Source of the DNA: a phage
Direction: 5' to 3' (one strand)
Length of the DNA stretch: 64,000 nucleotides
Sequence record: PZ166176.1
Shown: positions 17,110-63,921 of the stretch, one piece after another
Layout: each line of letters starts with the position of its first letter
Position numbering within the stretch: the stretch's first letter is position 1
Notes under the pieces: model-generated
Seen by the model: the letters and a program-made list of their open reading frames with translations, nothing else
The model's database searches: none
What the model was told of the DNA's origin: nothing
Program-made: the position numbers and the translations under genes

Positions 17110-17589
17110 ATGGATAAAATGCTTACTGGCGTAATGGCCTACGACCCATCTCAAGTTATCCTTTCATTAGGTGGTTGGGAACCGTGGGGTTTTGCGGCTG
17201 ATACTAAAATCGTTATTGCTAAATCTAACGATATTATCAACCCTTATTCAGGGACTGATGGCGACGTTTCTCTAGCTTTGAGTCGTAACCGTTTGGGAAC
17301 ACTCACAATGTCTTTGCAACGCACATCTCCAGCTAACGAAGTACTTGCAACATATGCACAAACAATGTATTCTACTCGTCAAGTAGCGTTCAGTGTTTAC
17401 TTGGAAGACCCACGTGGCTATTACATTAGCACGATTGGATGGATTCAAAGTCAGCCTGAAGATACTATTGGTGAAATGATTACAGAGAACCAATGGGTTA
17501 TTGGTCTTAAAGATGCAAGCCTTCTGCGTAATGAAGTTGGTGTAGGTTTGAGCACCCTTAACTCAATCTCTGCTCTGACAATTCAATAA
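17110..17589 (+). CDS. putative tail tube protein (159 aa)
   Basis: Position after the sheath gene, size, strong terminator downstream; called by synteny. Confidence 0.5.
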   Translation: MDKMLTGVMAYDPSQVILSLGGWEPWGFAADTKIVIAKSNDIINPYSGTDGDVSLALSRNRLGTLTMSLQRTSPANEVLATYAQTMYSTRQVAFSVYLEDPRGYYISTIGWIQSQPEDTIGEMITENQWVIGLKDASLLRNEVGVGLSTLNSISALTIQ

Positions 17590-17594
17590 TAAAT

Positions 17595-17616
17595 AAAGGG
17601 CAGAAATGCCCTTTTT
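17595..17616 (+). terminator. rho-independent terminator after the tube gene
   Basis: Hairpin AAAGGGCA-GAAA-TGCCCTTT followed by TTTTT. Confidence 0.75.
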
Positions 17617-17634
17617 ATCATTAGAGAGGAAAAT

Positions 17635-18117
17635 ATGTCACAAGAACAAGATAACACAATTCAAAAATATGCTCGACCAGAAGAAGTAGTTGAGATTCCG
17701 TTAGATGGAAACAGATCTGTTACTTTCCGTATTATGAAGTGGAGTCCATCTAAAGTGTTTGACAGGATTCCAGAATTGGGTAGTGTTCTGGTTGTTCCTA
17801 TGACTATGTATAGCACAGCAACAATGTCCGCAGACGAAGACCTTGAGTCACGTATTGCTATGGCACTGATCCAACTTTTTTCAGGTTTGGAAGAAAAGAA
17901 TTTAACTGTCTTTTTGCGTAAAATTTTAGATGAGGTTTATACCCAAGACGGTTATAACGTTGCAGAAAATTTTGATGAATTATTTATGGCTCACCCAGAA
18001 CTAGTGTTAGATCTTACTGCTAAAGTTCTGGAGGTAAACTACGGCCCTTTTTTCAAACGAGGTTTCGGAAAACTGTTCACACAGCTTCAGGCGATGACGA
18101 GTTTAGCAGCAAATTAA
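17635..18117 (+). CDS. tail assembly chaperone (G-like, 160 aa)
   Basis: Located directly before the tape measure gene; contains a slippery heptamer near its 3' end and an overlapping -1 frame ORF. Confidence 0.5.
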   Translation: MSQEQDNTIQKYARPEEVVEIPLDGNRSVTFRIMKWSPSKVFDRIPELGSVLVVPMTMYSTATMSADEDLESRIAMALIQLFSGLEEKNLTVFLRKILDEVYTQDGYNVAENFDELFMAHPELVLDLTAKVLEVNYGPFFKRGFGKLFTQLQAMTSLAAN

Positions 18118-53573: not shown

Positions 53574-53852
53574 TTAAAATGGTTCGTTAGTCTCCATCAT
53601 ATATTCTGCTTCTAGTTCTTCCATATGCTTTCTAAATTGGAAAGCAATTTCTGCTACAGTTACATTTAAATCTTTTTCAAAAACTTCTGTAGAGCCTTCA
53701 TAAAAACGAATACCGTCAATTAAAAGCCCTCCGTGGTAATCCCAATCACTTTCACGAGAAAGCGGGTTAGGCTCTTCATAATAGTAATCCACCTCCACAA
53801 CTAAGGCTTTCCCGTTACGAGTGGTGTATTCAAAATCAAAAGTGTTAATCAT
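53574..53852 (-). CDS. hypothetical protein (92 aa)
   Basis: ORF; acidic. Confidence 0.45.
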   Translation of the reverse strand: MINTFDFEYTTRNGKALVVEVDYYYEEPNPLSRESDWDYHGGLLIDGIRFYEGSTEVFEKDLNVTVAEIAFQFRKHMEELEAEYMMETNEPF

Positions 53853-54796
53853 TATAGCTCCTCAAATAAAAGTCTACGACGCTCATTCAACACATCAATG
53901 TGATAATGAGTCCTGACATACTTAGCTAATGCTAATCCTTTCTCCATGCAAACATCGGGAGCACTTAATAAGTATTCCGTAATATCTTTCCACTCGGAAG
54001 GTGTTTCAGCAAAGAATAACAAATCTTTAAACTCTTGTGTATGATAATTCTCACGAGGAGAACAGATCAAAGGTAAACCCTTAGCACCTGCCTCAAGAAT
54101 TTTAAGATTGCTTTTTGCATTATTAAACACGTTATCAATCAATGGCGCAAGACTGATTTGATGACCATCGTAAGATTCCATGTAGTTGGCATATGGTCTT
54201 ACACCTTCATAAACACAAGTTGGTGCTACATTTTCTCTGATTACAGACCATTCACGACTACTTAAAACTTCAGAATCCCTACGAAAACCACATATTGTAA
54301 GATCTTTACCAAAATCGGGCAAGATAGCCAAATCTTGTTTATGTGTTTCACTTCCAGCCCAGACTAATGGAGTTTTGGAGTAGCGATCACGGGTCAACAC
54401 AAATTGACCTTCATCATAAGGAAGTCCATTAGGGATTATGTGCACATTATCATTGTATTGTGAAAGTTCAACTTGCAAGGCAGGTGTCGTAGTTGTAACA
54501 AGATCACTGTGCTCTAAAAACCATTTTAAATGTTCACGAATACCTGATTCAAAAATACCTTCTAACATGTGTCCTTTTGGAATAACTAAAGAGTCATCCA
54601 AATCCATAACCATTTTAAAGCCTAGGTTTTTAAGGGCTAAAAAGCCCTCTTTACCTTTTGTTGGCACTCCGTTAAAAACGAAAACGTTGTATTTAGGTTG
54701 TGAAGAGAACTGCCTTGAGTAAGGCAGCACTACCCTATGGAAATCGCAGACACTATAATTGATTCCGTTACGATTGTCAAGAATTATTTGTCCCAT
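53852..54796 (-). CDS. glycosyltransferase-like protein (paralog 1)
   Basis: Paralogous to 54804-55751 (shared blocks VWAG, KSNLKILEAGAKGxPxxCS, VRTHY); the blocks resemble nucleotide-sugar-binding GT-B enzymes (inference). Confidence 0.4.
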   Translation of the reverse strand: MGQIILDNRNGINYSVCDFHRVVLPYSRQFSSQPKYNVFVFNGVPTKGKEGFLALKNLGFKMVMDLDDSLVIPKGHMLEGIFESGIREHLKWFLEHSDLVTTTTPALQVELSQYNDNVHIIPNGLPYDEGQFVLTRDRYSKTPLVWAGSETHKQDLAILPDFGKDLTICGFRRDSEVLSSREWSVIRENVAPTCVYEGVRPYANYMESYDGHQISLAPLIDNVFNNAKSNLKILEAGAKGLPLICSPRENYHTQEFKDLLFFAETPSEWKDITEYLLSAPDVCMEKGLALAKYVRTHYHIDVLNERRRLLFEEL

Positions 54797-54803
54797 ACTT
54801 CAC

Positions 54804-55751
54804 CTACAAACTTTCAATAACCTGGCGTCGCAACTCATTTGCATCTGCCAGATTATAATGTGTTCGAACATGTTCAGCCAAGAACAAGCCACGATCTTCC
54901 CGATAGTTTGGATTGCGAAGAAGCTTAACAATTTCGTAATGCCATTCTGCTTTGTTCTCTGCGTAAGCAACAGCACGAGCATCTACAGGGTTAAAATAAG
55001 GTAATACCTTAGAACAAACAATCGGAATACCCTTTGCTCCAGCTTCTAGGATTTTGAGATTACTTTTACAATTATTAAAATCATTATCTACCAAAGGAGC
55101 TATAGCAATAGCATGACTTTCGTAAACACTCATGTAATTATCTAAATCTTTTACAGCAGCTTTATATTTAGCATTTGGTAAATTTCTGCGAATCTTAATC
55201 CACTCTTGTCCCGTGATGCTCTGCGATGCTTCATATCCCGCAATAGTAAGAAGTTCATCATCGAAAGTATTAGAGACTAGTCGTAAATCGGGTTCGTGAC
55301 TAGCACCGCCAGCCCATACAACAGGGGTACCGGATGAACGATCATTTGACAAAGTGAATTGTCCACTATCAAAAGGAAGTGCATTTCGGATCACAACAAC
55401 ATTCCTATTTAAGTGACGGATCTTATATGCCAAGTATTCCGTAGTCACAATAACCACATCAGCAAGCTTAACCATAGCCACAATAGCATGAGTGTTTGAC
55501 TCGTATAAACTTGCTAAATAATGCTCTGGATTAAGTTGGTAAAAATCATCTAAATCTACAACAACCTTAACACCTTGACGTTTCAAAGATAAAACGTATT
55601 CTGCACCTTTAGAGTGGATACGGTTAAACACAACAATATCTTTCTTAGGTTGAAAATTATTGTTGTTAAATGGCATAACAATACGATGATAGTCACAACC
55701 GCTATGAGGTTTTGCATCAATTTTTAGTTTAGACCATTTTTTATTTGACAT
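54804..55751 (-). CDS. glycosyltransferase-like protein (paralog 2)
   Basis: Tandem paralog of 53852-54796 with the same conserved blocks. Confidence 0.4.
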   Translation of the reverse strand: MSNKKWSKLKIDAKPHSGCDYHRIVMPFNNNNFQPKKDIVVFNRIHSKGAEYVLSLKRQGVKVVVDLDDFYQLNPEHYLASLYESNTHAIVAMVKLADVVIVTTEYLAYKIRHLNRNVVVIRNALPFDSGQFTLSNDRSSGTPVVWAGGASHEPDLRLVSNTFDDELLTIAGYEASQSITGQEWIKIRRNLPNAKYKAAVKDLDNYMSVYESHAIAIAPLVDNDFNNCKSNLKILEAGAKGIPIVCSKVLPYFNPVDARAVAYAENKAEWHYEIVKLLRNPNYREDRGLFLAEHVRTHYNLADANELRRQVIESL

Positions 55752-56424
55752 GTGCTAGTGCCTCCTCATAGGAAATTCGGATTTTCCCATTTTTAATATC
55801 CTCTAAAGATGCTTTATATTCTTCCCAGTTAATCCCGATAGCAGCTTCTTTCTCTTCTTTTGTCAGATTAGCAAAAGGCATAGGGTTGTTTCCAAAAACA
55901 TCGTCTGGGTGGATATAAGCCATGATACGAAGTGGACAAGGTGTTGCCTGAATACCATGATTCAAACCAGCAGCTTTCAAACGGTGTCCCCATTCGGCAT
56001 CTTCAAAACCATAACCGTGAGTGTAAGGGCGGAAATAACCCATCTTCTCAACAACGGCACGAGAATACATTGCAAATTGACACATTGCAAGTTCCCAGAG
56101 AATAACTTCTCCTTTGCTTCCAACAACTTTATCTTTGAAGTACTCCGGCATACCAAAGAAATCCCATCCTCCAGAAACAGCTTGATCTACAAAGTATGTT
56201 TCCCATCCTTCCATGACTGGGTAGCAATCGTCGTCAAAAATAAACCAATAATCATAACCTTCTTCATAAAACTGGTGCATAAGTTCATTCCTGGCATAAG
56301 CTACACCTTTACGGTCTGGATCGTTGAATACTCGAAAATCTGCACGTGGATCTGTTACAAGGTAGTCTTTAAGTGGGCGGACACCTACAGTGATAACACC
56401 CACTCCGATTTTAATATTTTCCAT
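55741..56424 (-). CDS. putative GT-A-type glycosyltransferase (DxD motif)
   Basis: Motifs GVAYARNELM and WFIFDDDCYP are typical of family-2-like GT-A folds. Confidence 0.4.
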   Translation of the reverse strand: MENIKIGVGVITVGVRPLKDYLVTDPRADFRVFNDPDRKGVAYARNELMHQFYEEGYDYWFIFDDDCYPVMEGWETYFVDQAVSGGWDFFGMPEYFKDKVVGSKGEVILWELAMCQFAMYSRAVVEKMGYFRPYTHGYGFEDAEWGHRLKAAGLNHGIQATPCPLRIMAYIHPDDVFGNNPMPFANLTKEEKEAAIGINWEEYKASLEDIKNGKIRISYEEALAHVK

Positions 56425-56432
56425 TTTCTCTC

Positions 56433-56996
56433 CTAAATAGTTTTACTGTGATCGTGACAGTGTAATAAATGATGTATAGACCGTTGAGGATTTGTTTGAC
56501 CTAATCTGTAAATGTGAAACAGATACATTCCCCGCATCAATCCTAACCTCTTTCCTTTTTCATGTAAAGTGCGAGAGAAAATTAAGTCGAATTGGATAGA
56601 TTTTTCTTCGAAATGAATTTCATTCCACAATGATTTTCTAAAAAGCAAAAAGAAACCTGCCAAAGGTGTTCCGAAAGGAACTTCTTCAACACTCACTTTA
56701 TGATATTCTCTTGCAATCTTAGCATATTCTATATGGTTTAGAATATCTGGATCATCGTTAATTTGGTTAGAGAAAAGCTGATAACCACTGCCTAACCTGT
56801 TACAAGTTGCACCTATTACATCAAAAGGCGGGTTTGACATAACAAGCTCTTCAAGCATAGATGGTTGATCAGGTAGGAGGAACATTGTATCGGTATCTCT
56901 TAAACACACCCAACTATCATCTGGAAGAACGGCAATGGCTTCATTGATAGCCTTGCCGATATTTCCTGTCAGATAGGGAGTAATATAATAAATCAT
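56433..56996 (-). CDS. putative glycosyltransferase-like protein (weak)
   Basis: Acidic DTD motif (CLRDTDTMF) in an N-terminal Rossmann-like region; clustered with three other GT-like genes. Confidence 0.3.
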   Translation of the reverse strand: MIYYITPYLTGNIGKAINEAIAVLPDDSWVCLRDTDTMFLLPDQPSMLEELVMSNPPFDVIGATCNRLGSGYQLFSNQINDDPDILNHIEYAKIAREYHKVSVEEVPFGTPLAGFFLLFRKSLWNEIHFEEKSIQFDLIFSRTLHEKGKRLGLMRGMYLFHIYRLGQTNPQRSIHHLLHCHDHSKTI

Positions 56997-57697: not shown

Positions 57698-58219
57698 TTA
57701 ACTCCCCTTTGGTAGATAGAAACCATGCACTTTATCTCGATAAACAAGACGCATATCACGTTCCCAGTGTGTCCTTATATTCCGTTTCTTGAAGTATAGA
57801 GCACCTTTAGTAACATCTAAAACAGACCGCAATTCAGGAAAATGTTTCTCTAAATAAAGTAAACGCTCCGCTATTGCTTTTGCTTCCTGCCACTTATCTT
57901 TCTCTGTTACGTTAAAAGTTTTCGCATATGAGAATTGTCCTTTCTGGAACAAGACTCCTCTGACTGTGTTAGGGAAGTAGGTATCATTTCTTCTGTTGAT
58001 TACCACGTTCCCAACGGCATTCATTCCTTTTTTACCCAGACCGCGACCTTCTGCGTAAATTGCACAAGCTAATAGAATTTTATCATTATATTGCTTTGTA
58101 CATTTGTGAACTACTTTAGCGGTTTTTACGTTTGCAGCTTCGGCTTTCGCCACAACAGGTGTAAATGTAAAAGCAGTTAAGGATAGTAACGCAACTGTTA
58201 CAAAGTTTTTTATCAGCAA
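57698..58219 (-). CDS. secreted cell-wall hydrolase (SleB-like), candidate endolysin
   Basis: N-terminal signal-peptide-like segment (VTVALLSLTAFTFTPVVAKA) and motifs LACAIYAEGRG...GMNAVGNVVINR...VLFQKGQFS. Confidence 0.55.
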   Translation of the reverse strand: MLIKNFVTVALLSLTAFTFTPVVAKAEAANVKTAKVVHKCTKQYNDKILLACAIYAEGRGLGKKGMNAVGNVVINRRNDTYFPNTVRGVLFQKGQFSYAKTFNVTEKDKWQEAKAIAERLLYLEKHFPELRSVLDVTKGALYFKKRNIRTHWERDMRLVYRDKVHGFYLPKGS

Positions 58220-58318
58220 ATTTTGCCTCCTTTTTAAGTTAACGAATTTCTAGTATAGCACGATAGAGGCTTTATTGCAAGAGGGGTATTTCTCCCCCTC
58301 AAAATCATTTGTTAATTA

Positions 58319-58921
58319 TTATGGACATTCATACCATTCTTTTTTACCACCGAAGGCCATCACCACATCACAAATATCCAGACCAGCTTTACCTACACCA
58401 TATGCTTTCAGCTTCCATTCCCCATCTTCACGGACCAAGGAAGCCACGTGGCAGATTGTGTTGCCAGCTACTTCAGGAGCCAGGAAGTCAAAATCCAGAA
58501 TTTCCACATTGCGCTCGGAGTCGAAGATTTTAAGCATACCTTCAGAAGCATGACCAAAACGTTTCAGACCTGTATCATCATCAATGGTCAGAACAAAGGC
58601 AATCTCTTGTGCATCAGGAGAGATTTTAGCTAGAGTAATATCAATCTGCTCCATGCTGCCAGTTCCATCACGAACATCGTCACCAGCGAAGGTAGAACGT
58701 TCAGGATCAAACTTGTTAGCATAGCAAACCAGATGACGTGCAGACAGCATTTCAGGATTGCCAGCGGCATTGTGACGACAAACCAGTGCACTTACATCCA
58801 GATCCAGTTTAGAATCAGATTTCCAAGAGAATTCAAGGCGCAGTTCTTTCAGAGCCGGAGCAACTTTCTTCAGGGAAATTTTTTCGCTAGAGCCTTTTTT
58901 CAGGGAAATTTTATCAGTCAT
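58319..58921 (-). CDS. TerD-domain protein
   Basis: N-terminal KISLKKG repeats, DLDVSAL and later acidic segments characteristic of TerD-family proteins; 200 aa. Confidence 0.6.
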   Translation of the reverse strand: MTDKISLKKGSSEKISLKKVAPALKELRLEFSWKSDSKLDLDVSALVCRHNAAGNPEMLSARHLVCYANKFDPERSTFAGDDVRDGTGSMEQIDITLAKISPDAQEIAFVLTIDDDTGLKRFGHASEGMLKIFDSERNVEILDFDFLAPEVAGNTICHVASLVREDGEWKLKAYGVGKAGLDICDVVMAFGGKKEWYECP

Positions 58922-58936
58922 CTTTTGTCTCCTCTA

Positions 58937-59206
58937 TTATTTAAGTGTAATACCAGTTACAGTCAATTCTACTTCCAAAAGCTTAGATGTGTTTTGGATT
59001 GATACTAATTGTGCATGATGGTTTAGTTCTACAGCAGAACAATCATTTTCCCCATCATCTACTTTTAAATAAACAATGATTTCACTAAGGTCTAAACCAT
59101 TTTCGTCAAATGCATTTTCATAGACGAAAGTATCTCCTACATCCAAATCTTTAATGGTAAGGCATCGTTTATTTACTTTTTGCTCATCAATTTCGAAGTT
59201 TAACAC
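58937..59206 (-). CDS. small protein, paralog of 60228-60572
   Basis: Shares DLDVGxTF...NGLD...LEVELTVTGITLK blocks with the 114-aa protein on the other side of the vWA gene. Confidence 0.45.
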   Translation of the reverse strand: MLNFEIDEQKVNKRCLTIKDLDVGDTFVYENAFDENGLDLSEIIVYLKVDDGENDCSAVELNHHAQLVSIQNTSKLLEVELTVTGITLK

Positions 59207-59435
59207 TTCTTCCTCCTAATGTTATCTCCGGTTTGTATATACGAAGAATTATAGCATTTTCATTTTCTTTGTCAACCCATTCTTCATAATCGGGCCATAC
59301 ATGAATCTCTACTCTACTTACAATATCTTCCATTCGCACAGTCCCAATGAAATACTCTTTGAGACTGCGCATAATGAAAGCTTCTCTCTCGCGCCAATAA
59401 TTTTCTATGACTTGAGAGGCAAGCTCGTCGATCAT
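59187..59435 (-). CDS. hypothetical protein (82 aa)
   Basis: ORF between the TerD and vWA genes. Confidence 0.4.
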   Translation of the reverse strand: MIDELASQVIENYWREREAFIMRSLKEYFIGTVRMEDIVSRVEIHVWPDYEEWVDKENENAIILRIYKPEITLGGRSVKLRN

Positions 59436-60226
59436 TTTTTAGCACCTACTTTAACAACCCACTCTCCGAACTCTTCAGATAAGAGTTTGTCATAAAGCTC
59501 TGAATCTGTCAAGTCTAAATCTTTAATGCCAATAAAACCAACATTATCATAAGCATTTGCCAGTTCTTTCAGGAAGCCGAACTTCTCATTACCAACGCCA
59601 ACCATGAACCAATAAATAGGTTTATTCTTATTCTCTTCGATAAGACGACGAACAGCACTAGGATCACCATTCTCACCATCCGTCTGGAAGAATACAACAC
59701 CAGGGGTAACGTCAGCACCTGGTTCAGATACAGCTACAACTTTTTCACGCTCTACAGACACTGTTTCAGTTTTACCAAGCAGACGATTAAAGAAGCCTTT
59801 CTTTGGAGCCTCCTCTTGTACCACTTGTTTAGTGGTAATATATTTAGTAACAGTGCCAAAATACTCATCGTAGATATCCGCCATTACAGGGGCGTAATTT
59901 GTTCCACCTCCGATACGAACATTACGCATACATTTGCCAACATAGTCATCGTAAACATCTGCTGTTGCTGGAGTAAGCTCTTGGGAACTCGTATTGAAGG
60001 CCCACATATCAATTTGTTGATTATCGTCGAACAGCATACCAAAAGGAAGCAGTTTACCTACAAAATCACTCACTACCCCACTAGAATATAGACCATGCAT
60101 ACTACCAGAAATATCTAGAGCACATGCTACACGAAGAACAATCTTACCTTCATTCAGGTTCTTATTCTTTTTCAGAGAGAAAGCAAGGTTTTCTTGACGT
60201 TTTTTCAGGCTGATTTTCTCGGACAT
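59432..60226 (-). CDS. von Willebrand factor A domain protein (TerY-like)
   Basis: MIDAS motif ALDISGSM with downstream acidic residues; N-terminal KISLKK segment shared with the TerD gene. Confidence 0.55.
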   Translation of the reverse strand: MSEKISLKKRQENLAFSLKKNKNLNEGKIVLRVACALDISGSMHGLYSSGVVSDFVGKLLPFGMLFDDNQQIDMWAFNTSSQELTPATADVYDDYVGKCMRNVRIGGGTNYAPVMADIYDEYFGTVTKYITTKQVVQEEAPKKGFFNRLLGKTETVSVEREKVVAVSEPGADVTPGVVFFQTDGENGDPSAVRRLIEENKNKPIYWFMVGVGNEKFGFLKELANAYDNVGFIGIKDLDLTDSELYDKLLSEEFGEWVVKVGAKK

Positions 60227-60227
60227 A

Positions 60228-60572
60228 TTATTTCTCCTTCTTAAGTGTAATATTGGTAACTTCTAAATCTACTTCCACCATATTTGTATCTGGTGGGATG
60301 CAATGAGTATAGCCTCGTTGTGCTAGTGATCCATTAATACAAATCGCACTGTTTGTGGAATTTTTAATGAACACCAAGTTACGGTAGGTATCCAACCCTG
60401 CGTCTTCATAGGCATCATAATACATGAATGTGGCCCCTACGTCAAGATCTTCGAAAGCAATAGGTAAATCCTGACTTTTTTCTTCTTGAATATTGAATCT
60501 AAACACGCATACCTCCTCTACCAATTTTGAAGCCCAAATCGTAAGCTTCCTTAGTGATCTTTTGTAACTCAC
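60228..60572 (-). CDS. small protein, paralog of 58937-59206
   Basis: Shared blocks DLDVGATF, GLD, VEVDLEVTNITLKK. Confidence 0.45.
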   Translation of the reverse strand: MSYKRSLRKLTIWASKLVEEVCVFRFNIQEEKSQDLPIAFEDLDVGATFMYYDAYEDAGLDTYRNLVFIKNSTNSAICINGSLAQRGYTHCIPPDTNMVEVDLEVTNITLKKEK

Positions 60573-61062
60573 TTATAGGAAGTGTTACAAGAGGATCATC
60601 TTCTTCAATTTCCATCTTGTCATCTTCTGTTTCAATGAGAGTATTATGCACTTTGTGATAAGGGTTGTCAACACGTTTAAACTTATTCTTTTCTGTGCTG
60701 AAAAAACAATCTGGATCTTCTTCACCATCACCCCAACCTTGGTTAGGATCTCCGTCAGATTGTTCTGTAGGGATTTCACCTGTAAAGTACTCTTCCAGCA
60801 CCATAGCAATACCGTCCCTTGGATTTGAGGAATGCATTAAATCACAAACCTTACCCCAATCCATAGCCCATTCGAACCGTTCACGAACGCCATTTTCATC
60901 CTCCTTTCCAGAGAAAACACAACCATAACTATCATAGTTGCCATACATCTCTTCAATAACAACACCGTCCTTCAAAAGAAAGAGGTAGCAAGGTGATCCG
61001 TCGAAAGAAGTAGAAAGGGCAGCTTTGCCCGATTCTTTGCACAAAAAGCTAAAACAACCCAT
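60499..61062 (-). CDS. hypothetical acidic protein (187 aa)
   Basis: ORF; 3' end overlaps the downstream paralog gene by 74 nt. Confidence 0.4.
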   Translation of the reverse strand: MGCFSFLCKESGKAALSTSFDGSPCYLFLLKDGVVIEEMYGNYDSYGCVFSGKEDENGVRERFEWAMDWGKVCDLMHSSNPRDGIAMVLEEYFTGEIPTEQSDGDPNQGWGDGEEDPDCFFSTEKNKFKRVDNPYHKVHNTLIETEDDKMEIEEDDPLVTLPISELQKITKEAYDLGFKIGRGGMRV

Positions 61063-61265
61063 TACAAACCCTCCTTCAGATTATCAAGAGCTACAGTGGT
61101 TTCACAAGAGTCTCCATAAGTTTTATGATGTTCCAGAAAAGCTTCGGGTCCACCCCAGTCATTATCTTGTGTATTCCAGCCATCAATAAAAGCATCTTCA
61201 ATGATTGTGATCAGTTCTTGTCGGGTTAACTGGATAATATTAGGATCGTTATCGTAGTTAAACAT
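61062..61265 (-). CDS. hypothetical protein (67 aa)
   Basis: ORF with RBS. Confidence 0.4.
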   Translation of the reverse strand: MFNYDNDPNIIQLTRQELITIIEDAFIDGWNTQDNDWGGPEAFLEHHKTYGDSCETTVALDNLKEGL

Positions 61266-61430
61266 CTTCTTCCTCCTCTAAAATATGGAACCCGTAATTA
61301 CAATAATCCTGAAAGGTTTCGTGCGCAAGATCTTCTATATCCTCTTGAGACATATCATCTTCAATTTCGATATCCACAACCTCATTGCATCCACACCAAG
61401 CAGTTTCAATATTCACTCGTAATGTTTTCA

Positions 61431-61628
61431 TTACTCCTCCTCCTCATTGAAGTCAATATCTGCAAGGAGTTCGAATTTACGGAAGTTACGACAACCTTCA
61501 TAAATATAACAATCACGACAAACTGCTAGAACACTTGCGGGATATATACCTCCCATCGGTGCGAATCGTTTTTCGTCATCATAACGGACACCAATGTCTT
61601 CATCAATTATATAGATACGGATTCTCAT
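61431..61628 (-). CDS. hypothetical protein (65 aa)
   Basis: ORF; contains Cys residues; overlaps the upstream stop by 4 nt. Confidence 0.4.
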   Translation of the reverse strand: MRIRIYIIDEDIGVRYDDEKRFAPMGGIYPASVLAVCRDCYIYEGCRNFRKFELLADIDFNEEEE

Positions 61629-62737
61629 TTACCAAGCCCTCGTTTCACAGCAGCTACCATCCCGTCTTCCAGAGATTGAACTTCATTAATATAATCAACA
61701 CGAGCAGCACGGGCTTCCGTATTGATGCGGTTAGTTTCTTCCAACATCTTAACCAAGTTTTCCTGATCGTGACGCAGAGTTTCAATATCCAACACTTGAC
61801 GGTTAGCCAGTGCTGCTGCTTCGATCTGATTCTGTGTGGCAAGATCGCTACCCAGTTTAATTGCCAGGTTAAATTCATCAAGAACGTTATTCTGCGTCTC
61901 TGCTGCTTTCATTTGACGTAAGCTCTCGATATACATTGAGAAGTTAGCAGAGTAAGCAGGAATAACATTATTTACTATGTTACGCGCAGATCGCATTAAG
62001 CTTGCAGAAACTTTTTGCATACCTTGTACACGCGGTCCCATTTGGACACACAGTAGGCGCAATGCTTTTAAATCTGCAATACGAATCTCCAGAAGATCCA
62101 AAGTATCTCGGATCACTTGTCGCTGTTCTACTGCATCTTCTGGAAGAGCAGCCAAAGCTTGTTCTTCTTTTTCATAGGTTGCTGTTAGAAGCTGCATATC
62201 TCGGTTCAAACTTGCAGCATATTGTCCAATAGCTTGATGCAGCTTTTCAAGATATACCAAGGAATCTTCTTCTTTGCGAATATCCATTTGAAGGTTCTTT
62301 ACCAACTCTTCAATACGGTTATTAACATTATCAAACTCCCCGAACAGGTCTTCTTTCATACCCATAACTTTTTTAATGAGTTTAGTAATACCCTTGCTTT
62401 GTTTAATAGAGTTTGGATCAAGTTGTTTTGCCTGTTTAATCAAAGCTGTGAGTCGTTCACTCATCTGATCGCCTTGATTACTACGTTGATGTTTTAACAC
62501 CTCGGCATTCAAGGAACGCAAGGTTGTTCCTGCCTCTGCCCCAATCTCTTCAATCTCTTGTCGGGTCATAGAAGGCAAAACTGGAACTTCTTGCGGTGCC
62601 GCTGGTGCATAAACAGGACTGGCATCTAACACGCTTGGAGCGAATACAGATTTACTTGCATCTGTTGTTGCAGCGAATACACTCATTTCAGACTTCTTCT
62701 GACCACCAGTAGCTGCTTTTAAAAATGGACTTGTCAT
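61625..62737 (-). CDS. coiled-coil protein, possibly TelA-family (toxic anion resistance-like)
   Basis: 370-aa, largely helical, Gln/Leu/Glu-rich; size and architecture fit TelA-like proteins but no diagnostic motif could be verified by eye. Confidence 0.3.
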   Translation of the reverse strand: MTSPFLKAATGGQKKSEMSVFAATTDASKSVFAPSVLDASPVYAPAAPQEVPVLPSMTRQEIEEIGAEAGTTLRSLNAEVLKHQRSNQGDQMSERLTALIKQAKQLDPNSIKQSKGITKLIKKVMGMKEDLFGEFDNVNNRIEELVKNLQMDIRKEEDSLVYLEKLHQAIGQYAASLNRDMQLLTATYEKEEQALAALPEDAVEQRQVIRDTLDLLEIRIADLKALRLLCVQMGPRVQGMQKVSASLMRSARNIVNNVIPAYSANFSMYIESLRQMKAAETQNNVLDEFNLAIKLGSDLATQNQIEAAALANRQVLDIETLRHDQENLVKMLEETNRINTEARAARVDYINEVQSLEDGMVAAVKRGLGK

Positions 62738-63324
62738 TCTTCATTCTCCTCTTCTGCATCTCTTATATATGGTGAAACACCGTACTCTTTAGCTACTTTA
62801 ACCCAATCATCCCATTTATACAACCATAATTTTCCTTCAGTTCCTTCTTTATCTGATTTCAACCACATGTTAGGTTGCTTGCCTGGGTACATGCGATTAG
62901 GTTTACGATTATAACCTCTAACACATCTTGTCGCAAACCTATCTACCAGAACAAGAACATATTTATATTCGTGGTTCAACGGCTCTTTGGAAGTGGCTTT
63001 AGGATTAGCCCCTAACTCTGCTGCCAGTTTTTGCCAATGAGCACCGTGTCTACTAAACTTACCCATACAACCATCAATAGCATGAGCAATTTCGTGCTTC
63101 ATTGTATCCACGATCATATCTCTTGTGGAGTTCTTATGCAAGTGCCAATTTACAACAACAATTTTATCTCGGTAGTTGCACCAACCGAAAGAGTTATTCA
63201 CTTTGTTTCTAACACAAGCTTTATATCCTGCTTCACGTAACATGTTGTAGTAAACAGGAAAATCTTCTTTTATTTCCTGCATCACTTCCCACCACAAGAG
63301 TTGCAAGTCTCTCTCGGTATGCAT
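62734..63324 (-). CDS. SprT-like zinc metallopeptidase
   Basis: HExxH motif (MKHEIAHAI) followed by HGAHW, as in SprT-family proteases. Confidence 0.5.
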   Translation of the reverse strand: MHTERDLQLLWWEVMQEIKEDFPVYYNMLREAGYKACVRNKVNNSFGWCNYRDKIVVVNWHLHKNSTRDMIVDTMKHEIAHAIDGCMGKFSRHGAHWQKLAAELGANPKATSKEPLNHEYKYVLVLVDRFATRCVRGYNRKPNRMYPGKQPNMWLKSDKEGTEGKLWLYKWDDWVKVAKEYGVSPYIRDAEEENEE

Positions 63325-63327
63325 AAC

Positions 63328-63921
63328 TTACACCTTAAAAGCGAAATGCGTGGTCGTGGCTTCAAAATCAGGGCCAGATAAACTTGCACTGAAATCTGAA
63401 ATATTTGTAATTAAAAAGCTTTTATGCATACCTAACACAGCCACGCTTTCAATATCTTCTACTAACATTTCAATCATGTTAGAAACATGGCTGAACGTAT
63501 AGTTTTGTTTTTTGATGGTGTAGAAAGAAAGACTCCCACCTGCTGTATAAGATACCTCTTCAAAATCTTTAATCGTATATTGTGTGCCATCAGTAAAGAA
63601 AATGGTAGCTTTATTAGTAGCACGTTTCTTGTTTTTTGGTCCTTTTTTACGTTTACTGCGAGTAGGCAAACCGTTTGGAAATACTGTAGCTACAAATTCT
63701 TCAGGAGAAACCTCCTTACCGAAATCATAACCGTAAGAAACAGCGTCTATAAACTCGTCGTCTTCATTTTTAAAATAATGAAAATAGGGCCAATTTGAGA
63801 GATTATCGAGCATCTTATGCTCATCCACAGCAGAGAACGTATCCCTCAAAGCACGTGTGATTTGCAAAGCATTAGGCAAACTTTTAACACCTGTAATGGA
63901 AGTACGAATAGAAATTGTCAT
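63328..63921 (-). CDS. hypothetical protein (197 aa)
   Basis: ORF; basic patch KRKKGPKNKKR. Confidence 0.45.
   Translation of the reverse strand: MTISIRTSITGVKSLPNALQITRALRDTFSAVDEHKMLDNLSNWPYFHYFKNEDDEFIDAVSYGYDFGKEVSPEEFVATVFPNGLPTRSKRKKGPKNKKRATNKATIFFTDGTQYTIKDFEEVSYTAGGSLSFYTIKKQNYTFSHVSNMIEMLVEDIESVAVLGMHKSFLITNISDFSASLSGPDFEATTTHFAFKV

Follow-up and report, generated by a model that had tools for sequence, protein, structure and literature searches.

The 64,000-nt stretch of phage record PZ166176.1 that we analyzed (hereafter, the window) encodes, on its minus strand between positions 57698 and 63324, a TerD-domain protein, a vWA protein of the TerF type and a TelA-family protein. This interval almost certainly represents the TerD/vWA/TelA part of a conserved and nearly complete Ter stress-response system, which is carried by the Stephanstirmvirinae, including Phapecoctavirus, Justusliebigvirus and metagenomic relatives. 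The core of the system consists of these three proteins and of TerC, whose gene would lie outside the window, with a phosphoribosyltransferase (PRTase) and a HAD-like hydrolase as probable further components. A first-pass annotation, made from the sequence alone, had proposed a Ter-family gene set in a virulent phage, and the domain matches bear this out. All the open reading frames (ORFs) that it named are present at their coordinates on the minus strand, and Pfam searches gave significant matches to each of the four families it had suggested, namely TerD, vWA, TelA and SprT-like.

The TerD-domain protein (58319-58921; 200 amino acids, aa) matches Pfam family PF02342 with an E-value of 3.2e-28 (98.9 bits for a cut-off of 25.3) and aligns end to end, over 179 residues, with TerD of Klebsiella pneumoniae (2KXT, E = 1.5e-15). 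In this alignment, the phage protein retains the DLDxSA segment, and the acidic motif GDNRTGEGDGDDE of canonical TerD reads GDDVRDGTGSME, with three acidic positions lost. According to the 2KXT study, the acidic motif reportedly binds Ca2+. The vWA protein (59432-60226, 264 aa) matches the Pfam vWA-TerF-like family PF10138 with an E-value of 1.6e-37. Its metal-ion-dependent adhesion site (MIDAS) is intact, as had been predicted: in a set of 20 vWA-TerF proteins that includes TerD-vWA fusions, residues D38, S42, T109 and D183 do not vary, and the conservation of S40 is 90% or more. Compared with the shortest versions from bacteria and phages, the vWA proteins of the Stephanstirmvirinae contain an insertion of about 30-45 residues. 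The third core protein (61625-62737, 370 aa), which had been called possibly TelA-like, matches Pfam PF05816 (E = 3.2e-33) over profile positions 13-327 of 332 and falls in phrog_5890 (E = 1.6e-139). Sequence searches of the PDB returned no match for the vWA, TelA or SprT-like proteins.

Two labels of the first-pass annotation had to be changed, "SleB-like" (see below) and "TerY-like". The vWA protein had been described as TerY-like, whereas its subtype is TerF C-terminal and no TerY-P defense model matches it. The TerY-P triad, reportedly described by Gao et al. in 2020 as an anti-phage system, is said to consist of a TerY vWA protein, a Ser/Thr kinase and a phosphatase of the PP2C family. 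It likewise has a vWA protein of the Ter kind, but of the TerY rather than the TerF subtype, and no kinase or PP2C phosphatase domain was found in Pfam scans of the ORFs of the region. Another parallel is the bacterial and plasmid terZABCDEF operon (IncHI2 plasmid R478, E. coli O157, K. pneumoniae), whose TerD, TerC and TerF-type vWA domains are homologous to those of the phages. The phage set differs from this operon by being without TerZ, TerA, TerB and TerE and by its diverged TerD Ca2+ motif. The phage vWA protein is 25-38% identical to its bacterial relatives and stands alone, in contrast to the TerD-vWA fusion proteins (P0187-P0190) that represent the architecture after which PF10138 is named.

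The N-termini of TerD (58865-58921) and of the vWA protein (60167-60226) carry a near-identical double motif, M-x-x-K-ISLKK...[IF]SLKK. An ISLxK...SLxK pattern is kept across the vWA-TerF family, TerD-vWA fusions included, and the stand-alone vWA protein may therefore keep a TerD-like N-terminal hairpin.

The window, which comes from a Phapecoctavirus, is colinear to its very end with Shigella phage SF1-1 (98.6% identity), and at least 65 GenBank Phapecoctavirus phages match the interval over its full length at 98.5-99.3% DNA identity. Phapecoctavirus phages are phAPEC8-like E. coli myoviruses of about 150 kb. In another 64 records, among them those of Justusliebigvirus and of phi92-like phages (alia, VEcB), the identity is 60-80%. 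Members of Phapecoctavirus (ZCKP1, ESCO13) and phi92 (Justusliebigvirus) have the same genes in the same order, the amino-acid identity to phi92 being 47-81%. A gene-by-gene comparison between SF1-1 and phi92 gave identities of 81% for TerD (gp172 in phi92), 66.5% for the vWA protein (gp173), 78.5% for TelA (gp178), 71% for TerC (gp182), 49% for a Macro-domain protein, 65% for the PRTase (gp186) and 47% for the HAD-like hydrolase (gp187); the values were 65% for a small protein encoded immediately upstream of the vWA gene (gp174), 76% for a 187-aa protein and 76% for a secreted cell-wall hydrolase. The order in phi92, HAD-PRTase-Macro...TerC...TelA...187aa-small-vWA-TerD-(gp171)-hydrolase, is as here. 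Compared with phi92, Phapecoctavirus adds a second small paralog and an 82-aa ORF between the vWA and TerD genes and an SprT-like gene upstream of TelA. The neighborhood comparison upheld the Ter core of the proposed gene set, the order of which is kept in phi92, and not its SprT-like member, for which the phi92 Ter locus has no detectable counterpart.

The dN/dS values (ratios of nonsynonymous to synonymous substitution rates) between Phapecoctavirus and phi92 were 0.095 for TelA, 0.115 for TerD, 0.159 for the vWA protein and 0.20 for the small protein upstream of vWA (paralog B), with dS values of 1.1-1.7 for the genes for which the ratio was computed. These four genes are under purifying selection, and this excludes the reading in which they are decaying or neutral cargo with no role in infection. 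Such a reading, which we find hardly credible, could draw on the incompleteness of the set relative to the classical operon (no TerB, a single TerD), on the degenerate Ca2+ motif of TerD and on one published argument that an incomplete ter set is unlikely to give tellurium resistance. It does not fit with dN/dS values of 0.10-0.20 at a dS above 1 between genera, with the intact MIDAS, with synteny held down to about 46% vWA identity or with the perfect promoter described below.

The set does not end where the first-pass annotation had placed its limit. By colinearity with SF1-1, the window ends about 950 bp short of TerC, and on the same strand of SF1-1, past the point corresponding to the window end, are encoded TerC (PF03741, 3e-40), the Macro-domain protein, a PRTase_3 "ComF-like" phosphoribosyltransferase (E = 2.2e-41) and the HAD-like hydrolase. 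The last of these is a weak assignment, with a Pfam E-value of 1.2e-3 that misses the cut-off and a PDB match to phosphoserine phosphatase at 3.6e-5. TerC is found in phi92 and in L009, a 144-kb metagenomic contig, as well. The interval is the downstream (3') part of this minus-strand string of Ter genes, at the end nearer to the glycosyltransferase genes.

Ter-dependent stress-response systems were reportedly defined by Anantharaman, Iyer and Aravind in 2012. In the more recent scheme of Iyer et al., PRTase and HAD proteins are assigned to signal synthesis, TerD to sensing, TerC to the membrane, and TelA and the TerF vWA protein to the sub-membrane layer (PMC7824862). All the phage Ter classes of this scheme are present here or in near-identical relatives; the differences are that there is a single TerD paralog and that no TerB was found among the ORFs tested, nor any ATP-grasp or other biosynthetic enzyme.

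More distant loci keep parts of the arrangement. In L009, whose vWA protein is 46% identical, the order is TerC...TelA...vWA-TerD-x-Hydrolase_2...PRTase_3. The set of Pseudomonas phage Kremar is compact (TelA-TerF-TerC-TerD), and a Neobacillus prophage-like island has TerD-vWA-TerC. The virulent phages phiPsa374, Kremar and phiKp34 and the Caulobacter/Brevundimonas jumbo phages share the same four core families, but in these compact sets the identity is 21-35% and the gene order is different. In the Neobacillus vireti island (contig L008, 7404-11928), TerD-vWA-TerC is directly followed by a gene similar to phosphoribosyl pyrophosphate (PRPP) synthase and by NAMPT, an enzyme of NAD salvage, and in Kremar a PRPP synthase is encoded about 5.5 kb from the Ter core. 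Phage Ter genes may be recurrently linked to PRPP/NAD metabolism.

It is important to note that the Ter genes of this clade are already known, as dozens of near-identical genomes carry their annotation and publications have mentioned them from 2012 onward. Several near-identical records label them "TelA-like protein", "tellurium resistance protein", "VWA domain-containing protein" or "general stress protein 16U", and also carry the labels "SprT-like family protein" and "cell wall hydrolase/endolysin". Among 50,697 phage records, we found vWA-TerF homologs in 220, TelA homologs in 225 and TerD homologs in 149. The view that this is not a standard phage module was therefore not sustained. Phage ZCKP1, which is 99.1% identical to the interval, was described as encoding four tellurite-resistance-related genes, a possible insurance against superinfection (PMC6141743). 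Phi92 has been reported to carry "alx-like ter cluster genes", with a function described as unknown, and the same was said of the terC, terD, terF and telA sets of phiKp34 and phiPsa374. The ter genes treated in a paper on a Raoultella phage are those of the host and have no bearing here. Ter systems have also been noted in jumbo "and certain other related smaller tailed phages", with a proposed role in competition with superinfecting phages (Iyer et al. 2021, PMC7824862). Superinfection exclusion is the role usually guessed in published work on phage Ter genes. With the genes annotated in dozens of near-identical genomes and the exclusion hypothesis already in print, the discovery value of the Ter set itself is small. 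The present analysis adds the linkage of a small protein family to the vWA and TerD genes, the gene boundaries, and the exclusion of the SprT-like protein and of the cell-wall hydrolase from the system.

This small family, phrog_11278, is represented by two genes. Paralog A (58937-59206, 89 aa, E = 2.6e-45) lies between the vWA and TerD genes, and paralog B (60228-60506, 92 aa, E = 4.8e-50) lies immediately upstream of the vWA gene; both are predicted to be beta-rich. For paralog B, the most likely start is a GTG codon at 60506 and not the position 60572 given previously, since the annotation of a 99%-identical phage and the homologs agree on it. That the two are paralogous, as had been noticed, was confirmed (34% identity, E = 3e-15). 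The single phi92 copy, gp174, occupies the same position upstream of the vWA gene and is orthologous to paralog B. For paralog A, phi92 has no counterpart of its own, the only match being gp174 at 37% identity. Phi92 therefore has one copy, upstream of vWA, and Phapecoctavirus has one on each side of it.

All members of this tiny family that were seen come from phage records or from metagenomic contigs of phage-like character, and the family forms 8 clusters in an index of 5.8 billion proteins. We sampled the neighborhoods of five distant members, encoded on six metagenomic contigs (L012-L017), and in 6/6 of them the small gene is directly beside a confirmed vWA-TerF gene, a TerD gene or both. 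The order is vWA-small-TerD-Hydrolase_2 in L016 and vWA-small-small-TerD-Hydrolase_2 in L013, where both small copies are members of the family (hhalign, 4e-7). In L012 and L014, TerD comes immediately after the small gene, the vWA gene being off the contig or unidentified. L015 reads vWA-small-[cut ORF], and L017 reads small-vWA-80aa-small-[cut ORF], the TerD position being taken by a contig-end ORF with no Pfam call. A search for loci related to the small-protein alignment returned only two, both phi92-like. No phrog_11278 match was found in the Otagovirus-like (phiPsa374/Kremar) or Caulobacter/Brevundimonas groups, and one Pseudomonas record, PsgM04F (151 kb), carries the family. It was not found in the bacterial Ter loci examined nor in L009, where a 110-aa ORF upstream of the vWA gene was considered as a member and rejected (hhalign probability of 0.1%). 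The published accounts of phage Ter systems that we examined do not name the family.

The adjacency to vWA and TerD is constant while the position relative to vWA shifts, and paralog B has a dN/dS of 0.20; for these reasons, phrog_11278 probably represents an accessory Ter subunit that is specific to this clade and associated with the vWA-TerD pair. A more detailed proposal would see in the small proteins subunits dedicated to a vWA(TerF)-TerD complex peculiar to phages, for instance as acidic ligands occupying the MIDAS or as bridges between the vWA protein and TerD, and would make the early-expressed set, with TerC, TelA and the PRTase/HAD signal, a machine for superinfection exclusion or envelope conditioning. 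We advance this proposal as a rather unlikely one. Should it be true, it would provide the first tractable model of how Ter systems work. Ter systems are widespread in bacteria, on plasmids and in large virulent phages, and their molecular mechanism is an old question that dates from the 1990s; the phage sets, which are small, under strong purifying selection and found in easily grown E. coli phages, are a possible model, and the constantly adjacent phrog_11278 family offers a concrete interaction to probe.

Structure prediction for a small paralog with AlphaFold2 (AF2) gave a beta-rich model of moderate quality (predicted local distance difference test, pLDDT, of 71.7; one good model of five), and the hope of recognizing its fold was disappointed, as a Foldseek search of the PDB returned only weak SH3/KOW-like barrels (best E = 0.9). 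An exhaustive profile search with the small-protein alignment gave 28 matches, of which about 14 are short members. About half of the 28 are giant DUF11/DUF7507/HYR repeat proteins that share only a short LDVGeTwvY motif, and we regard this as similarity at the level of a motif and not as homology. In four of the proteins (P0195, P0197, P0214 and P0215), the profile matches repeats of giant Ig-like surface proteins through LDVG(E/D)T(W/F)xY. These matches give a weak hint that the small proteins could be single beta-sandwich-like units.

A perfect sigma-70 consensus promoter with an extended -10 element (TTGACA-N16, the spacer ending in TGC, followed by TATAAT) is located at 59248-59275 on the minus strand. 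It falls within the 3'-terminal part of the 82-aa ORF and is the only 12/12 sigma-70 site in the window; the start of paralog A, with its AGGAGG ribosome-binding site (RBS), follows about 42 nt downstream. A simple estimate with uniform base composition puts the number of such sites expected by chance in 128 kb of two-strand sequence well below 1. The gap between vWA and TerD in phi92 has an analogous site, TTGACT-16-TAAAAT. Because of these two sites, TerD (together with small paralog A in Phapecoctavirus) is probably transcribed by the unmodified host RNA polymerase.

How such a set could serve the phage is suggested by work on bacterial ter genes. Both phage inhibition and resistance to colicins are lost when terC, terD or terZ is disrupted by insertion, and deletion of terC enlarges plaques; the ter operon confers tellurite resistance as well (PMC12054061). 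TerC contributes to tolerance of envelope stress or envelope-active agents (PMC9933665), and telA of Listeria contributes to nisin resistance, according to the part of PMC7574537 where this result is cited. Our explanation, that the Ter set conditions the envelope of the infected cell and thereby excludes competitors, stands at about even chances when taken as a whole; the function of exclusion or envelope conditioning, considered by itself and argued by analogy, we place somewhat below even. In this explanation, the host RNA polymerase would transcribe the genes from sigma-70 promoters in the replication phase. TerC would be located in the inner membrane, TelA and the MIDAS-bearing vWA protein would assemble beneath it by MIDAS contacts that depend on metal, and the small proteins would be their clade-specific partners. 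TerD, also part of this early-expressed, membrane-proximal complex, would be the sensor of a cation or ligand, possibly of the product of the PRTase and HAD pair, which is thought to make a nucleoside-like signal. The complex would alter the envelope and the ion state of the infected cell, so that DNA entry by a rival phage or the action of colicins would be blocked, and the same complex could stabilize the envelope until lysis.

Several points weigh against this explanation. We found no experiment on any phage Ter gene in the literature. Neither a TerB domain, in Pfam scans of 29 ORFs of the region, nor the multiple TerD paralogs of classical terZABCDEF, among the region ORFs scanned, were found, and Ca2+ sensing by the phage TerD may be altered, its motif being degenerate. 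A PADLOC scan of 10 proteins matched no defense model and gave two insignificant matches only. TerC, the PRTase and the HAD protein are placed about 1-5.5 kb past the window end on the strength of relatives. Finally, the gene order kept within one phage clade partly reflects common descent and not necessarily functional coupling.

The Ter set might instead serve the phage itself, by envelope and metal homeostasis that buffers the membrane, Mn2+/Zn2+/Ca2+ or proton-motive-force stress caused by its own replication and envelope-active proteins and so maximizes burst size. We judge this less probable than exclusion, though it deserves to be taken seriously. In Klebsiella, TerC is tied to Zn(II)/Mn(II) resistance and to envelope-stress tolerance (PMC9933665, PMC12054061). 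Moreover, the phage Ter genes are located in a block of replication and nucleotide-metabolism genes, between NrdDG and the primase/polymerase genes, and a secreted cell-wall hydrolase is syntenic with TerD in several lineages. On the other hand, the most consistent phenotypes of bacterial terC and terD are inhibition of phages and colicins. Sequence does not separate homeostasis from exclusion, and the two can coexist.

The Macro-domain protein introduces another possibility. In SF1-1 it is gp208 (positions 17546-18019 of locus L001), located about 2.2-2.7 kb past the window end between TerC and the PRTase, and its closest relatives are macrodomains of the TARG1/OARD1 type (5e3b, 9e-13) and of the DarG type (5m31, 3e-6); phi92 gp185 has the same domain and an extra N-terminal region. 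The PRTase and HAD proteins, with or without the Macro protein, could make or destroy a nucleotide-like molecule and so disturb host immune signaling or ADP-ribosylation, with TerD, TelA and the vWA protein as sensors or scaffolds for this activity. Counter-defense of this kind would be in line with the adjacency of PRTase_3 and Macro in both SF1-1 and phi92, with the relationship of the Macro domain to TARG1/OARD1 and to DarG, and with the PRPP synthase and NAMPT genes next to Ter genes in the Neobacillus island and the PRPP synthase near those of Kremar. We consider it improbable nonetheless, as the enzymes are outside the window, at a distance of 3-6 kb from the TerD, vWA and TelA genes; in L009 many genes lie between the PRTase and the Ter core, and no Macro domain was recorded; and in Kremar the compact Ter core has no PRTase_3 annotated in 12.8 kb of the locus. 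The Macro protein itself may be an independent anti-DarT counter-defense gene rather than a Ter component.

The first-pass annotation had grouped seven genes in one module, in which an SprT-like protease and a secreted SleB-like hydrolase would act together with TerD, vWA and TelA. Membership stands for TerD, the vWA protein and TelA, probably also for the small proteins, and falls for the protease and the hydrolase, one being without a detectable counterpart in the phi92 locus and both belonging to widespread families. The seven genes follow one another on the same strand, their ORFs overlapping or abutting, and the position of the hydrolase downstream of TerD, directly or after one ORF, is kept in relatives (L002, L009, L013, L014 and L016). 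Against a joint action, which we hold to be very unlikely, the hydrolase family is spread over 1,094 phage records, T5-like phages and Vequintavirinae among them, and the SprT-like protein, with no detectable counterpart in the phi92 Ter locus, has homologs in 364 phage records, most of them from phages of Klebsiella, Vibrio and Streptomyces, which are not among the groups listed for the Ter genes. The TerD stop codon is followed by a GAGGGG...CCCCTC hairpin that lacks a T-run, and the hydrolase gene is preceded by a promoter-like TTGCAA-17-TATACT and a strong AAAGGAGG RBS; by these signals, the hydrolase looks separately expressed. The SprT-like protein, the hydrolase and the 187-aa protein are neighbors and not Ter components, because their families are common in phages showing no Ter genes.

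The SprT-like metallopeptidase (62734-63324, minus strand) matches PF10263 with 36.7 bits for a cut-off of 25.6 (E = 4.2e-9) and has the HEIAH motif in its translation (H77-E78-I-A-H81). With 21 bits against the NCBIfam SprT equivalog, for which the cut-off is 175, it is a member of the family and not an SprT ortholog. The cell-wall hydrolase (57698-58219, minus strand) has a Sec-type signal peptide, as read from the translation, and a Hydrolase_2 domain (Pfam, E = 1.9e-17). It was called SleB-like with reason as far as this catalytic domain is concerned, but SleB proper was rejected (TIGR02869, 51.7 bits for a cut-off of 236.5), only the Hydrolase_2 domain being in common.

The 187-aa protein (60499-61062, minus strand; phrog_14928) is a conserved orphan that is syntenic with the Ter genes here. 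Its family has at least 314 homologs at 50-65% identity in marine and other phage contigs, where their contexts include no Ter gene. The residues G2, C3, S5 and C8 and the motifs GNYDSYG, DPNQGWG and P134-x-H136 are invariant in the family. The AF2 model has a pLDDT of 87, yet no fold match was found in the PDB or BFVD, and the protein could be an unrecognized enzyme or metal-binding fold.

The remaining ORFs of the interval and its upstream edge are all on the minus strand. The 82-aa ORF (59187-59435) belongs to phrog_22387 (E = 8e-58) and has no Pfam match, nor does the phi92 locus used for comparison contain a counterpart. Between TelA and the 187-aa gene (61062-61628) are three small ORFs of 67, 57 and 65 aa; only the 67-aa one has a phi92 counterpart, and the 57-aa one has a weak DUF7167 match, below the cut-off. 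Upstream of the SprT-like gene, a 197-aa ORF (63328-63921; phrog_27550) is partly related to phi92 gp179. An NCBIfam scan returned nothing above any cut-off.

Directly downstream of the Ter/hydrolase block, four glycosyltransferase genes are found in a row (53852-56996, minus strand), and they are kept in phi92 (gp163-166). Several GenBank records (MG065650, MG065689, MG065656) are labeled "Campylobacter phage" with C. jejuni as the host, yet are about 99% identical to Phapecoctavirus or Justusliebigvirus phages of E. coli, which suggests host mislabeling or coliphage contamination.

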